Positions 1-3,875 of a stretch of 3,875 bases of DNA are shown in pieces. The translations under genes and the position numbers were made by a program. Source of the DNA: a virus (lineage: Duplodnaviria; Heunggongvirae; Uroviricota; Caudoviricetes); IMG/VR virus record IMGVR_UViG_2667527839_000009, positions 1-3,875 of that record; one strand, written 5' to 3'. The notes under the pieces are model-generated. The model saw nothing but the letters and a program-made list of their open reading frames with translations. It did no database searches and was not told where the DNA came from. Position 1 is the stretch's first letter. Every line of letters begins with the position of its first letter.

Positions 1-672
1 ATGAAACAAATGTCACTAATTGAGATGGATGGATTTCTGAAAGGAAAATGCATCCCGCGAGACTTAAAGGTTAACGAAACAAACGCTGAATATCTGGTGC
101 GTAAATTTGGTGAGCTTGAATCAAAGATTGCATTACTTGAAGTGCAATTAAAGCTATCGGAAGCAGCAGAAAGAGCATGGGAGTCATCAATGATGCAGGC
201 TTGCGGCGAAGACGGGCCGAAATCAGTGGCTGATAAGTTTGCCGAACTTGAAGCCAAGTGCGCGGCGCTAGCAACTGATAACAAGAAAGCAATGGAGGCA
301 ATGAGGCAGGCAGATGCAGCCGTTAAGTTGGCACACGAGAAGTTTTCGGCGCTGGCGGCGGAGAATGCGATGTTGAAGCAACGGACACAGCAACTTATCG
401 ACATCATTAGTAATACTGACAATGACTACTGCATGTGTGGTTCTGCTATGAAAGACCACGTGCACAGCGGATGTGGTTATCCTACTGGCATGTTCGATTA
501 TTACTACAACCAGTGGCTGGAGTCAGATAACAAAACCCCAGCCACCGACGCTTTCCTGGCTGAAGTCCGGGCGCAGGGCGTGGAGATGTTTGCGGAGTGT
601 GCATACACACTTGAACATCATGATCACGCAGTAGCCTTCGCCGCTGAGCTTCGCAAAGGAGGCAACCAGTGA
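1..672 (+). CDS. Hypothetical phage protein: N-terminal coiled coil plus Cys/His-rich C-terminal domain, possibly Ea22-like; may be 5'-partial because the ORF begins at window base 1
   Basis: 223-codon ORF ending at TGA 670-672. Residues ~35-135 are heptad-like and Ala/Glu/Lys/Leu-rich (ELESKIALLEVQLKLSEAAERAW...AENAMLKQRTQQLIDII). The C-terminal part carries C144, C146, H153, H155, C158 (nt ~430-474) and C200, H206, H207, H209. An AGGAGG for the next gene lies inside its 3' end, consistent with an operon. The start cannot be verified because the frame is open to the window edge. Confidence 0.7.
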   Translation: MKQMSLIEMDGFLKGKCIPRDLKVNETNAEYLVRKFGELESKIALLEVQLKLSEAAERAWESSMMQACGEDGPKSVADKFAELEAKCAALATDNKKAMEAMRQADAAVKLAHEKFSALAAENAMLKQRTQQLIDIISNTDNDYCMCGSAMKDHVHSGCGYPTGMFDYYYNQWLESDNKTPATDAFLAEVRAQGVEMFAECAYTLEHHDHAVAFAAELRKGGNQ

Positions 673-968
673 GTGTATATCTTATTGATAAACGTCGACG
701 TGGGCAACAAATACCATCTGTAGGAATTCCGAATCACACATGGTTTTGCGTACTTGATATCGATGGTATGGATGCGTTGGTTGACACTCGTCATTACTGC
801 GATACCGCAACAGCTACTCCGGCGAAAGCAAAGAAAATGGCTGCTCTGATAGAAAACTGGACTCCACCTGATGGTTGGTGCAATGGGAATGATCGAGATT
901 GGCATGAAAAAATGAAGGGCTATATCTGCGATTTCTTACGTAAATGCAACGGCTTCAGGGTGATGTGA
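669..968 (+). CDS. Small hypothetical phage protein, Cys-rich (99 aa), GTG start
   Basis: GTG at 669-671 overlaps the upstream TGA stop (GTGA, 669-672). A consensus Shine-Dalgarno AGGAGG at 657-662 sits 6 nt upstream. The protein has Cys at 27, 44, 71, 87, 93 and His at 23, 42, 79. It occupies the position that ea8.5-type small genes hold in lambdoid phages, but I do not recognise its sequence. Confidence 0.65.
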   Translation: MSVYLIDKRRRGQQIPSVGIPNHTWFCVLDIDGMDALVDTRHYCDTATATPAKAKKMAALIENWTPPDGWCNGNDRDWHEKMKGYICDFLRKCNGFRVM

Positions 969-969
969 T

Positions 970-1380
970 ATGACCAAAATTAACTATCAGGCGCTGCGTG
1001 AAAAGGCAGAGAAAGCAACGAGTGGTGTGTGGTCGCTCGAATATGGAGAGGAGAGATTTGATGCTGGTGATGCGCTAATTCATCGTGAAGTTGTTGGATA
1101 TCTTCCCATTTGCAGAATTGAAGGAGCGTATCCTGAAAGCGGTTTCGATGAAGATTTCCAAATGGAACAGCAGGCCAATGCTGAATTCATCGCTGCAGCC
1201 AATCCGGCTACTGTGCTGGCACTGTTGGATGAACGGGAAAGAAACCAGCAATACATCAAACGCCGCGACCAGGAGAACGAGGATATTGCGCTTACGGTTG
1301 GGAGGCTGCGCGTTGAGCTGGAAGCCAAAGACCGGAGGATTGCTGAGCTGGAAATAAGCACTATGGCCCTGAGAGGATAA
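970..1380 (+). CDS. ead/Ea22-like family phage protein (136 aa)
   Basis: ATG at 970 lies 1 nt after the upstream stop (966-968). The N-terminus MTKINYQALREKAEKAT... and the motif ANAEFIAAANPATVLALLDERE match what I recall of ead/Ea22-like prophage proteins. A short C-terminal coiled-coil segment follows (RLRVELEAKDRRIAELE). The assignment is from memory, not from a search. Confidence 0.75.
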   Translation: MTKINYQALREKAEKATSGVWSLEYGEERFDAGDALIHREVVGYLPICRIEGAYPESGFDEDFQMEQQANAEFIAAANPATVLALLDERERNQQYIKRRDQENEDIALTVGRLRVELEAKDRRIAELEISTMALRG

Positions 1381-1383
1381 CCC

Positions 1384-2301
1384 ATGAGCACTATGACCAA
1401 ACAATGGCTGAAGCGGAAAATTGCAGAAATGGAAGCTGCCCGCGATGAAATCCCGTTCGGCCTGGACGAAGACGACAGCAATACACTTTCGGCGCTGCGT
1501 ATCGCGCTGGCATCGCTCGAAGCGGAGCCTGTGATTACCGTTGGCGATGATGGTGGTGATGCGCTTGCTTATCGCCGTCTTATTCAAACGTTCGCACCAG
1601 GAACGAAGCTATACACCGCCCCGTCAGCGCCAGAAAATGCTGACCCCGTAGCCTGGCTGTGGTCACACAGAAAACACCCTAGCGAAGTTACGCTTGTTCG
1701 TCCTGAAGATGACGAAAAAGCAGAAGCAGCTCTGTGGTCTGGATGGAGTTGTCAGGCGCTTTATGCAGCCTCTCCAGCGCCGGTATCTGTGCCCGCTGCG
1801 ATGGAAATGGATGATGACTTTGACAGCGCGTTTGAACACGGAAAAGCTGTCGGCTGGAACGCCTATCGCGCCGCCATGCTTCAGGCCGAACCTGTAAGTA
1901 ATAGTTATGAGTTACCGCTGGACTATCTGCAAGGACACAAAGACGGCCTGGAGTGGGCTGCACAATTGGCAGAAGCCAATCATCCGCAAACAGGTGACTG
2001 GTTGTACGACGACCCAATCGATCTTGCCAGGGCGATTCGCAAAGGTCCGGATATGCCTACTGTTCAGGGTGGCAATTCTCCGGTAACTCCGGATGGTTGG
2101 ATAAGCTGTAGTGAGCAGATGCCTTCCGCAGGGGAACAAGTGTTGGCGTACCGTCCAGACGCGCCGGAAAGTAATGATCCATTAATCAAGATGGCAACGT
2201 ACGTTGGCGGGTCAGCACACGGACACGGCTTTGATTGCTACTGCAAGCCAACCCACTGGATGCCGCTGCCAGCAGCACCGCAGGAGGTGAACCGTGGCTA
2301 A
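1384..2301 (+). CDS. DUF551-like phage protein (305 aa), acidic and Ala/Pro-rich, with conserved C-terminal ...THWMPLPAAP motif
   Basis: ATG at 1384 follows the upstream TAA (1378-1380) by 3 nt, with GAGAGGA at 1371-1377 as RBS. The C-terminal ~70 residues (PDGWISCSEQMP...VLAYR...THWMPLPAAPQE) resemble the DUF551 domain common in enterobacterial prophage early regions. The N-terminal two-thirds are rich in Asp/Glu/Ala/Pro. Stop is TAA at 2299-2301. Confidence 0.75.
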   Translation: MSTMTKQWLKRKIAEMEAARDEIPFGLDEDDSNTLSALRIALASLEAEPVITVGDDGGDALAYRRLIQTFAPGTKLYTAPSAPENADPVAWLWSHRKHPSEVTLVRPEDDEKAEAALWSGWSCQALYAASPAPVSVPAAMEMDDDFDSAFEHGKAVGWNAYRAAMLQAEPVSNSYELPLDYLQGHKDGLEWAAQLAEANHPQTGDWLYDDPIDLARAIRKGPDMPTVQGGNSPVTPDGWISCSEQMPSAGEQVLAYRPDAPESNDPLIKMATYVGGSAHGHGFDCYCKPTHWMPLPAAPQEVNRG

Positions 2302-2401
2302 CCTGCAACTTGCCGTCAAAGGTGAATAACAATCCTCGCATTCGCGGGGATTTCTTTTATCTGAACTCGCTACGGCGGGTTTTGTTTTATGGAGATGATA
2401 A

Positions 2402-2569
2402 ATGCACTTTCGAGTCACAGGTGAATGGAATGGAGAACCATTCAACAGAGTTATCGAAGCGGAGAACATCAACGACTGCTATGACCACTGGATGATATGG
2501 GCGCAGATAGCGCATGCAGACGTAACCAATATTCGAATTGAAGAACTGAAAGAACACCAAGCCGCCTGA
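2402..2569 (+). CDS. Small hypothetical phage protein (55 aa), not present in the supplied ORF track
   Basis: My own translation of ATG 2402 to TGA 2567-2569 gives MHFRVTGEWNGEPFNRVIEAENINDCYDHWMIWAQIAHADVTNIRIEELKEHQAA. GGAG at 2391-2394 lies 7 nt upstream of the ATG. The stop sits inside the stem of a terminator-like hairpin. The sequence reads like a compact globular protein, whereas the overlapping 86-aa ORF at 2235..2495 in another frame lacks an RBS and is low-complexity. Confidence 0.55.
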   Translation: MHFRVTGEWNGEPFNRVIEAENINDCYDHWMIWAQIAHADVTNIRIEELKEHQAA

Positions 2570-2581
2570 TGGCGGTTTTTT
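2559..2581 (+). terminator. Putative rho-independent terminator (GC stem, tetraloop, T-tract)
   Basis: CCGCC (2562-2566) pairs with GGCGG (2571-2575) around loop TGAT (2567-2570). The stem can extend through G2561-T2576 wobble and two A-T pairs. A run of six T (2576-2581) follows immediately. Confidence 0.45.
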
Positions 2582-2582
2582 C

Positions 2583-2622
2583 TTGCGTGTAATTGCGGAG
2601 ACTTTGCGATGTACTTAACACT
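2583..2622 (+). promoter_or_regulatory. pI-like cII-activated promoter: cII site TTGC-N6-TTGC straddling the -35 region, with the transcript start expected just inside xis
   Basis: TTGC at 2583-2586 and TTGC at 2593-2596 are separated by exactly 6 nt (GTGTAA), the architecture of lambda cII sites at pRE, pI and paQ. This is the only such pair I found in the window. By analogy with lambda pI, the start would fall a few nt past the xis ATG (2609), giving an int-only message. The -10 element and start site are not resolved from sequence. Confidence 0.6.
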
Positions 2623-2827
2623 TCAGGAGTGGAACGCACGCCAGCGGCGCCCAAGAAGCCTTGAAACAGTTCGTCGATGGGTACGCGAGTGCAGGATATT
2701 CCCTCCTCCGGTTAAGGATGGAAGAGAGTATCTGTTCCACGAATCAGCGGTAAAGGTTGACTTAAATCGACCAGTAACAGGTAGCCTTTTGAAGAGGATC
2801 AGAAATGGGAAGAAGGCGAAGTCATGA
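2609..2827 (+). CDS. xis: Excisionase Xis (lambda-type, 72 aa)
   Basis: The translation MYLTLQEWNARQRRPRSLETVRRWVRECRIFPPPVKDGREYLFHESAVKVDLNRPVTGSLLKRIRNGKKAKS matches lambda Xis as I recall it. GGAG at 2597-2600 lies 8 nt upstream of the ATG. Its 3' end overlaps int by 23 nt, as in lambda. Confidence 0.95.
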   Translation: MYLTLQEWNARQRRPRSLETVRRWVRECRIFPPPVKDGREYLFHESAVKVDLNRPVTGSLLKRIRNGKKAKS

Positions 2828-3875
2828 GCGCCGGGATTTACCCCCTAACCTTTATATAAGAAACAATGGATATTACTGCTACAGGGACCCAAGGACGGGT
2901 AAAGAGTTCGGATTAGGCAGAGACAGGAGGATAGCAATTACTGAAGCAATACAGGCAAACATTGAGTTATTTTCAGGACACAAACACAAGCCTCTGACAG
3001 CAAGAATCAACAGTGATAATTCTGTTACGTTACATTCATGGCTTGATCGCTACGAAAAAATCCTGGCCAGCAGAGGAATCAAGCAGAAGACACTCATAAA
3101 TTACATGAGCAAAATTAAAGCAATAAGGAGGGGTCTGCCTGATGCTCCACTTGAAGACATCACCACAAAAGAAATTGCGGCAATGCTCAATGGATACATA
3201 GACGAGGGCAAGGCGGCATCAGCCAAGTTAATCAGATCAACACTGAGCGATGCATTCCGAGAGGCAATAGCTGAAGGCCATATAACAACAAACCCGGTCG
3301 CTGCCACTCGCGCAGCAAAATCAGAGGTAAGGAGATCAAGACTTACGGCTGACGAATACCTGAAAATTTATCAAGCAGCAGAATCATCACCATGTTGGCT
3401 CAGACTTGCAATGGAACTGGCTGTTGTTACCGGGCAGCGAGTTGGGGATTTATGCGAAATGAAATGGTCTGATATCGTAGATGGATATCTTTATGTCGAG
3501 CAAAGCAAAACAGGCGTAAAAATTGCCATCCCTACAACATTGCATGTTGATGCTCTCGGGATATCAATGAAGGAAACACTTGATAAATGCAAAGAGATTC
3601 TTGGCGGAGAAACCATAATTGCATCTACTCGTCGTGAACCGCTTTCATCCGGCACAGTATCAAGGTATTTTATGCGCGCACGAAAAGCATCAGGTCTTTC
3701 CTTCGAAGGGGATCCGCCTACCTTTCACGAGTTGCGCAGTTTGTCTGCAAGACTCTATGAGAAGCAGATAAGCGATAAATTTGCTCAACATCTTCTCGGG
3801 CATAAGTCGGACACCATGGCATCACAGTATCGTGATGACAGAGGCAGGGAGTGGGACAAAATTGAAATCAAATAA
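2805..3875 (+). CDS. int: Tyrosine site-specific integrase Int (lambda-type, 356 aa), full length
   Basis: The translation matches lambda Int essentially along its whole length: the N-terminal arm-binding region (MGRRRSHERRDLPPNLYIRNNGYYCYRDPRTGKEF...), the motif HELRSLSARLY, and LLGHKSDTMASQY with the catalytic Tyr at residue 342 (codon 3828-3830, TAT). GAGGA at 2794-2798 precedes the ATG. Stop TAA at 3873-3875 is the last codon of the window. Confidence 0.97.
   Translation: MGRRRSHERRDLPPNLYIRNNGYYCYRDPRTGKEFGLGRDRRIAITEAIQANIELFSGHKHKPLTARINSDNSVTLHSWLDRYEKILASRGIKQKTLINYMSKIKAIRRGLPDAPLEDITTKEIAAMLNGYIDEGKAASAKLIRSTLSDAFREAIAEGHITTNPVAATRAAKSEVRRSRLTADEYLKIYQAAESSPCWLRLAMELAVVTGQRVGDLCEMKWSDIVDGYLYVEQSKTGVKIAIPTTLHVDALGISMKETLDKCKEILGGETIIASTRREPLSSGTVSRYFMRARKASGLSFEGDPPTFHELRSLSARLYEKQISDKFAQHLLGHKSDTMASQYRDDRGREWDKIEIK

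Follow-up and report, generated by a model that had tools for sequence, protein, structure and literature searches.

Phage lambda orf55 upstream of xis in a mosaic lambdoid prophage: coding status, terminator-flanked context and possible function

Immediately upstream of the excisionase gene of a lambdoid prophage lies a short open reading frame (ORF) that ends in a terminator-like hairpin, which raises the question of whether so small a frame is a gene and, if it is, whether its position next to xis reflects a part in excision. We analyzed the whole 3,875-nt stretch of Caudoviricetes DNA in which this frame was noticed (positions 1 to 3,875 of IMG/VR record IMGVR_UViG_2667527839_000009; hereafter, the window). 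The window is part of a mosaic lambdoid prophage that carries orf55 of phage lambda, and the best coverage of it by any phage record is at most 56%. Positions 1–2301 hold a mosaic of accessory genes, namely, a 223-aa coiled-coil ORF (phrog_614), a 99-aa DUF7739 protein, a 136-aa Ead/Ea22-like protein and a 305-aa protein with a C-terminal DUF551 domain, the start and stop codons of which overlap or abut at 669/672, 968/970 and 1380/1384. Taken jointly, the claims that the frame is lambda orf55, that it is a real coding gene and that the locus is built as described below can be made with considerable confidence.

Identity and coding status of the reading frame

The frame extends on the plus strand from an ATG at 2402 to a TGA at 2567–2569 (orf55, 2402–2569; 55 codons and the stop) and is translated as MHFRVTGEWNGEPFNRVIEAENINDCYDHWMIWAQIAHADVTNIRIEELKEHQAA. 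A GGAG Shine-Dalgarno sequence (2391–2394, plus strand), located within the conserved block TTTTATGGAG, is separated from the ATG by a 7-nt spacer. The description of an unlisted 55-aa ORF with a consensus ribosome-binding site (RBS), made in the initial annotation from the letters of the window, is thus confirmed; the frame was absent from the ORF list because the ORF lister, by default, reports nothing shorter than 60 aa. The downstream neighbor is xis (2609–2827, plus strand; Pfam Exc, E = 3.9e-41), with its ATG at 2609, 39 nt past the orf55 stop. With 61 ORFs of 20 aa or more in the window, the length of orf55 is not by itself beyond chance.

Orf55 shares 100% identity with the protein encoded at 29121–29285 (minus strand) of phage lambda by an ORF that is named lambdap35 in RefSeq (NP_597778.1, “hypothetical protein, predicted by GeneMark”) and carries no annotation in the original lambda record J02459. 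The phrog_676 profile was matched over residues 1–55 of 55 (E = 6.6e-40), so that the database check proposed with the initial annotation yielded full-length matches to a known protein and a known family. The gene was presented there as an overlooked one, a view that has to be abandoned: it is annotated as ORF55 (AAA67903.1) in the int-xis record of phage 434 (M60848) and as “similar to lambdap35” in the GenBank record of HK140, was among the seven exo-xis region ORFs described by Sergueev et al. 2002 (PMC3824215), and was modeled in a later study (PMC8614690). Pfam yielded no match for Orf55 at E ≤ 0.1, and scans of Orf55 together with its divergent relatives against Pfam, NCBIfam and PADLOC matched no families. 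A match to copper nitrite reductase in a profile search of PDB sequences was dismissed as a chance 11-residue stretch (HFKVTGEWN; E about 0.9).

Conservation of the frame was assessed across related loci. A first set of 80 loci had been picked by protein identity, which biases the sample towards synonymous change, and was replaced by 120 loci collected with a 20-mer of the upstream hairpin, which lies outside the ORF, as the anchor. An intact 55-codon ORF was present in 72 of these 120 loci (46 DNA haplotypes), and three carried a frameshift or nonsense mutation. Among the 46 haplotypes, the Nei-Gojobori pN/pS in the orf55 frame was 0.238, whereas each of the other five frames either had a value close to or exceeding 1 or was broken by stops in almost every haplotype; an antisense frame with a value as low as 0.27, for example, contained stops in 45 of the 46. 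An antisense ORF of 57 aa with a TTG start (2387–2560, minus strand) overlaps orf55 almost completely and was rejected as a gene, since its pN/pS was 0.76 and stops interrupt it in 9 of the 46 haplotypes. The orf55 copy from Klebsiella (76% aa and 74.5% nt identity) differs at 11, 4 and 27 first, second and third codon positions, respectively, corresponding to a dN/dS of 0.118, with dS near saturation. After removal of duplicates, orf55 was intact in 83 of 86 distinct loci. The initial annotation had named an unconserved frame or frequent frameshifts as the observations that would speak against a gene; we found instead selection confined to the orf55 frame and disrupted copies amounting to about 3.5%. 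Judged by these substitution patterns, orf55 is a real protein-coding gene under purifying selection.

The family to which this gene belongs is narrow. An exhaustive search of 1.84 billion cluster representatives produced only 51 matches, including about seven truly divergent full-length relatives (36–53% identity, 51–57 aa), which have in common the motifs F-x-V/C-T-G-x-W-N-G-E-x-F, EAED, D-C, H-W and W-A; all four divergent relatives scanned against PHROGs fell into phrog_676. Residues W9, N10, the acidic loop E19-A20-E21 and W33 of Orf55 are invariant in the family. The family phrog_676 is confined to temperate phages of Enterobacterales. Within the lambdoid phages, orf55 has been described as less widely conserved than the other exo-xis genes; phi24B lacks it, and 933W has only part of it (PMC8614690). 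The segment was detected in 2641 of 5426 complete Escherichia coli genomes, with at least 80% of its length covered in 2175 of the 2641, under the PGAP label “hypothetical protein”.

Many database proteins (P0102, P0105, P0104, P0056 and others) contain Orf55 residues only in part. In some, such as P0102 and P0105, the C-terminal two-thirds (from residue 17 or 18 to 55) is fused in frame to upstream ASCH-domain or Ea22-like genes, and others contain only residues 1–24 or 26–55, which suggests recurrent recombination breakpoints inside orf55. Both disrupted and partial copies are to be expected of a dispensable prophage gene. In P0100 (141 aa), loss of the orf55 stop (AA-W-W-R-F-F...) lets the frame continue through the terminator into a small helix-turn-helix (HTH) gene starting with MQHELQ, as either a natural read-through fusion or a sequencing error. 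Two large proteins, P0116 (1149 aa) and P0118 (835 aa), show four to five weak repeated matches to Orf55 residues 5–46 (20–37% identity, E about 1e-5 to 1e-3); these probably arose by chance, the other possibility being a repeated beta-hairpin motif.

Flanking hairpins and cassette edges

The 3′ end of orf55 overlaps a predicted intrinsic terminator (2559–2581, plus strand) composed of a stem (2559–2566/2571–2578), the loop TGAT (2567–2570) and a run of six T (2576–2581). The stem has 8 pairs, 5 of them G-C, with the core CCGCC/GGCGG, and its 5′ arm encodes the last three residues of Orf55 (CAA GCC GCC, Gln-Ala-Ala). With its G+C-rich stem, short loop and U-run, the hairpin agrees with the terminator that had been proposed at the end of the ORF, just upstream of xis; the stop codon, previously placed inside the stem, turned out to lie in the 4-nt loop. 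A terminator scan of the window detected 6 sites compared to 3.5 ± 2.2 in shuffled sequences, which is not above expectation, and the hairpin region folds with z = −2.2. Given that the hairpin count is not beyond chance, the case for this feature rests on comparative evidence. The hairpin core is nearly invariant across the 86 distinct loci (dG about −13 kcal/mol), the HK140 record annotates this very hairpin as a rho-independent terminator, and the Klebsiella copy also has the TGA in the loop of a GCCGCC/GGCGG stem followed by a T-run, with the loop CACTGA versus TGAT in E. coli. In the relatives with 36–52% identity, no hairpins were found, and the genes overlap or abut their neighbors.

The hairpin occupies the site upstream of xis that is labeled t′I in the phage 434 record (M60848). 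In phage 434 itself (L002, 2060–2100), the ORF55 hairpin contains a mismatch (GGAGG), and the annotated t′I is a different hairpin located after ORF114, immediately before CTTGCGTGTAATTGC. Where ORF114 (the MSDLSM and MSDLAM classes) follows orf55, the 3′ hairpin is often weakened by a change of GGCGG to GGAGG or GGAGT, down to a mean dG of −5 kcal/mol in one ORF114 subclass, and a second terminator, t′I, follows ORF114. In these loci, the terminator function seems to have moved while staying adjacent to xis. Directly after the terminator T-run, the window contains TTGC-N6-TTGC (2583–2596, plus strand; read from the sequence, CTTGCGTGTAATTGC), which, by analogy with lambda, would be the motif recognized by cII in the −35 region of pI, the promoter of int. 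Homology between the phages breaks just 5′ of this motif.

Two hairpins precede the gene. The first (2331–2361, plus strand), AATCCTCGC-ATTC-GCGGGGATT followed by a T-rich run, corresponds to a feature that the records of 434 and HK022 label tL4. The second (2363–2390, plus strand), GAACTCGC-TACG-GCGGGTTT followed by TGTTTTAT, is terminator-like, lies immediately before the RBS and carries no annotation in the phage records examined; it occurs in GCGAG and GCGGG variants, with the stem paired in both (A-U versus G-U). The stems proper span 2331–2352 and 2363–2382, and the joint fold has a free energy of −28.9 kcal/mol (z = −4.24). Three terminator-like hairpins are found within 250 nt around orf55. 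An Rfam scan of the window returned nothing relevant, the two sub-threshold matches being located elsewhere in the window.

Among related phages, conservation extends from the first hairpin through the T-run of the 3′ hairpin, with divergence on both sides. Furthermore, in about 35 of the 120 anchored loci (2358–2400; L088–L202), tL4 and the TTTTATGGAG block precede different genes, including an ORF114-like gene (MSDLAMK...) and others starting with ATGGCCTGTTC..., ATGATTCTTGTG... and ATGCAACCAATC..., which points to a recombination junction right at the Shine-Dalgarno sequence. The Klebsiella locus has the same layout in different sequence, with a small hairpin and T-run, AGGAG, the gene and a terminator. 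By the comparison of these loci, orf55 is a terminator-bounded cassette in E. coli and Klebsiella phages, the edges of which correspond to recombination junctions.

Expression, neighboring genes and competing accounts

In the window as well as in lambda, 434, HK140 and Klebsiella, orf55 lies on the xis/int strand in the early-left operon, and the divergent members are also early-left. The interval from the upstream terminators to the ATG contains no predicted sigma70-like promoter. The moron model, in which orf55 would have a promoter of its own in the space from tL4 to the ATG, was considered and rejected, given that there was no consensus match and that a candidate found by hand was too weak and too near the RBS. 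In the pL operon of lambda, RNA polymerase modified by N at nutL reads through intrinsic terminators. From the promoter-less gap, the location in the pL operon and this lambda biology, we infer that orf55 would be transcribed mainly by N-antiterminated polymerase from pL, through tL4, as a delayed-early gene made from antiterminated transcripts. Unmodified transcripts would be stopped before xis by tL4 and by the 3′ terminator that abuts the cII site of pI. Further downstream, xis and int overlap by 23 nt (2805–2827), as in lambda, and one or more synonymous changes set the xis coding sequence apart from its lambda counterpart (TACTTAACA versus TACTTGACA).

The density of hairpins raises the possibility that the segment is selected at the RNA level, for its terminators or as a spacer insulating xis-int, and that the ORF is incidental or the antisense 57-aa ORF is the real gene. 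The hairpins are conserved, and the tL4-plus-RBS block also occurs without orf55, both of which would fit such an account, but it is refuted by the substitution pattern (frame-specific pN/pS of 0.24, dN/dS of 0.12), and protein homologs with 36–53% identity that lack any terminators and the confident fold prediction described below also argue against it. For the antisense variant, the pN/pS and the stops reported above are adverse as well, and we consider the entire RNA-level account barely credible. A different role for the RNA would be a device in which a ribosome at the end of orf55 hides the 5′ arm from pairing, so that termination before xis would be relieved only during translation of orf55 and read-through into xis-int would be under translation-coupled attenuation. 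The loop holds the stop codon in the E. coli and Klebsiella versions alike, although they differ in loop and tail sequence, and a ribosome terminating there would, judging by its footprint size, be large enough to span the 5′ arm completely. Yet overlaps between stops and terminators are common in compact phage genomes and need no regulation to explain them, and transcription of xis-int from pL in lambda relies on N antitermination, which ignores such terminators. In phage 434, as in 22 of the 86 loci, ORF114 and a separate t′I hairpin are placed before xis, and divergent homologs lack the hairpin. Attenuation appears very unlikely.

The position of the gene suggests yet another account, in which Orf55 would act with Xis and Int as an accessory factor of site-specific recombination, modulating excision or integration; the initial annotation had likewise raised a role in excision. 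Indeed, orf55 is directly upstream of xis-int in lambda, the window and the Klebsiella copy, in 60 of the 86 distinct E. coli phage loci the next gene encodes either an excisionase or a small protein with excisionase-like HTH matches below threshold, and one homolog with 45% identity is two genes away from an AlpA/DUF4224-integrase pair. However, the gene that follows the T-run varies among the 86 distinct loci, being lambda xis in 38, the MQHELQ small HTH gene in 20, ORF114 in 22 (where it intervenes between orf55 and xis, as in phage 434) and two others in a total of 6. (An apparent “MAVFYW” class was an artifact of an in-frame ATG in the hairpin loop reading into ORF114 and was merged with it.) At least five unrelated downstream classes are thus represented, and the commonest Orf55 allele is identical in every one of them, which argues against a specific partnership with any one excisionase. 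Moreover, the genes of the divergent homologs in Proteus, Morganella and a bat-faeces siphovirus, like that of P0117, are neighbors of N, kil, cIII or the repressor and lie far from int, and the terminator and the homology breakpoint part the cassette from the xis-int module. The adjacency is more simply accounted for if orf55 is the last accessory gene of the early-left operon. The proposed role in excision is not supported: a recombination factor is highly improbable, the adjacency to xis appears positional, not functional, and Orf55 is probably not a dedicated excision factor. A looser role in the balance between lysis and lysogeny, as reported for the whole exo-xis region (PMC3824215), is possible.

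Predicted fold and possible function

Orf55 is acidic (net charge −6) and was modeled by AlphaFold2 with a beta-beta-alpha-beta fold at a pLDDT of 93.2, in line with the earlier impression that the protein looks globular; only the six-residue tail, which is encoded by the terminator stem, is disordered in the model. A 2021 modeling paper had presented an AlphaFold model of Orf55 and speculated on its likeness to T7 Gp2 (PMC8614690). In our comparison, the resemblance to Gp2 was a weak match of a generic fold with non-significant scores, and p56/UDG, AcrIE2 and Dmd, small phage inhibitors with quite different targets, matched Orf55 about as well. By sequence, Orf55 matched neither PF16857 nor phrog_1307, and the hhalign probability was 2%; the T7 Gp2 control matched PF16857 at 4e-28 as well as phrog_1307. 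The strand-3 arginines R56 and R58 of Gp2, which contact the beta′ jaw, align with N43 and R45 of Orf55 (PMC8614690; also in our hhalign alignment). Hence, one of the critical arginines is replaced by N43, and R45 gives way to V, E, N, H or D in divergent members. The Gp2 analogy rests on the generic fold and fails at the level of both sequence and key residues.

These observations bear on the strongest version of that analogy, namely, that Orf55 is a functional counterpart of Gp2 that binds the beta′ jaw and sigma70 region 1.1 and damps sigma70-dependent transcription (PMC8614690), with binding to RNA polymerase depicted in a speculative docking model (PMC8614690). The non-significant scores, the lack of family membership and of conserved critical arginines, and the about equal fit of p56/UDG, AcrIE2 and Dmd all weigh against it. 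A further objection comes from the biology of the two phages: T7 brings its own RNA polymerase, whereas lambda relies on that of the host. We consider a functional Gp2 analog doubtful. Our own, tentative reading is that the small, acidic Orf55 might bind a host protein, or modulate one, during early lytic growth. Host RNA polymerase would be the leading candidate target because of the Gp2/epsilon-like fold; alternatively, Orf55 could contribute to the inhibition of host replication initiation in which the orf73-ea22-ea8.5-orf55 segment has been implicated (PMC9239242). The more specific proposal that Orf55 represents a lambdoid branch of Gp2/epsilon-like acidic proteins, which in early lytic growth bind host RNA polymerase, or another central host machine such as the apparatus for replication initiation, and mildly tune it without shutting it off, is rather unlikely; under this proposal, the placement of the terminators would restrict Orf55 to N-antiterminated transcription. 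If the proposal is true, one of the last lambda genes without an assignment would gain a molecular function.

The statement in the initial annotation that small proteins upstream of xis are poorly characterized holds for orf55, the product of which is represented in the literature by an in-silico model. A genome-wide CRISPRi essentiality screen skipped lambdap35, which has no PAM site (PMC10695390), and a re-analysis of lambda ribosome profiling does not mention the gene orf55. Effects on lysogenization, induction and host replication have been reported for the exo-xis region taken together (PMC3824215, PMC4195576, PMC9239242). The ORF, its name, the terminator and the structural hypothesis were all already known from GenBank records or the literature; this work adds quantitative support for coding, the structure of the cassette and its junctions, the case against an excision-specific role and a critical examination of the Gp2 comparison. 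The gene orf55 is common, its segment being found in about half of complete E. coli genomes, and is yet among the few lambda genes without experimental data.

Compared with known systems, the locus is closest to that of lambda itself. The DNA is 97.3% identical over 2326–2620, the RBS, the upstream tL4 hairpins, the 3′ terminator and its stop-containing loop, and the xis-proximal position are all as in the window, and the few differences between the cassettes are synonymous only. The upstream neighbor is a DUF551 protein in the window and ea8.5 in lambda, which is normal mosaicism. Orf60a, Orf61, Orf63, Orf73, Ea22 and Ea8.5 of lambda come from the same region and operon as Orf55 and are likewise small, non-essential accessory proteins; individual genetic or structural data are available for these other exo-xis proteins, in contrast to the in-silico model of Orf55 (PMC8614690), with Orf73 being a TraR-like RNA polymerase binder and NMR structures existing for Ea8.5, Orf63 and Ea22. 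The cassette is also comparable to phage moron-style cassettes, which similarly consist of a single small gene between terminators, with homology breakpoints exactly at the edges and several alternative neighbors; orf55 differs from these in that no promoter of its own was detected, and it appears to depend on read-through from pL.
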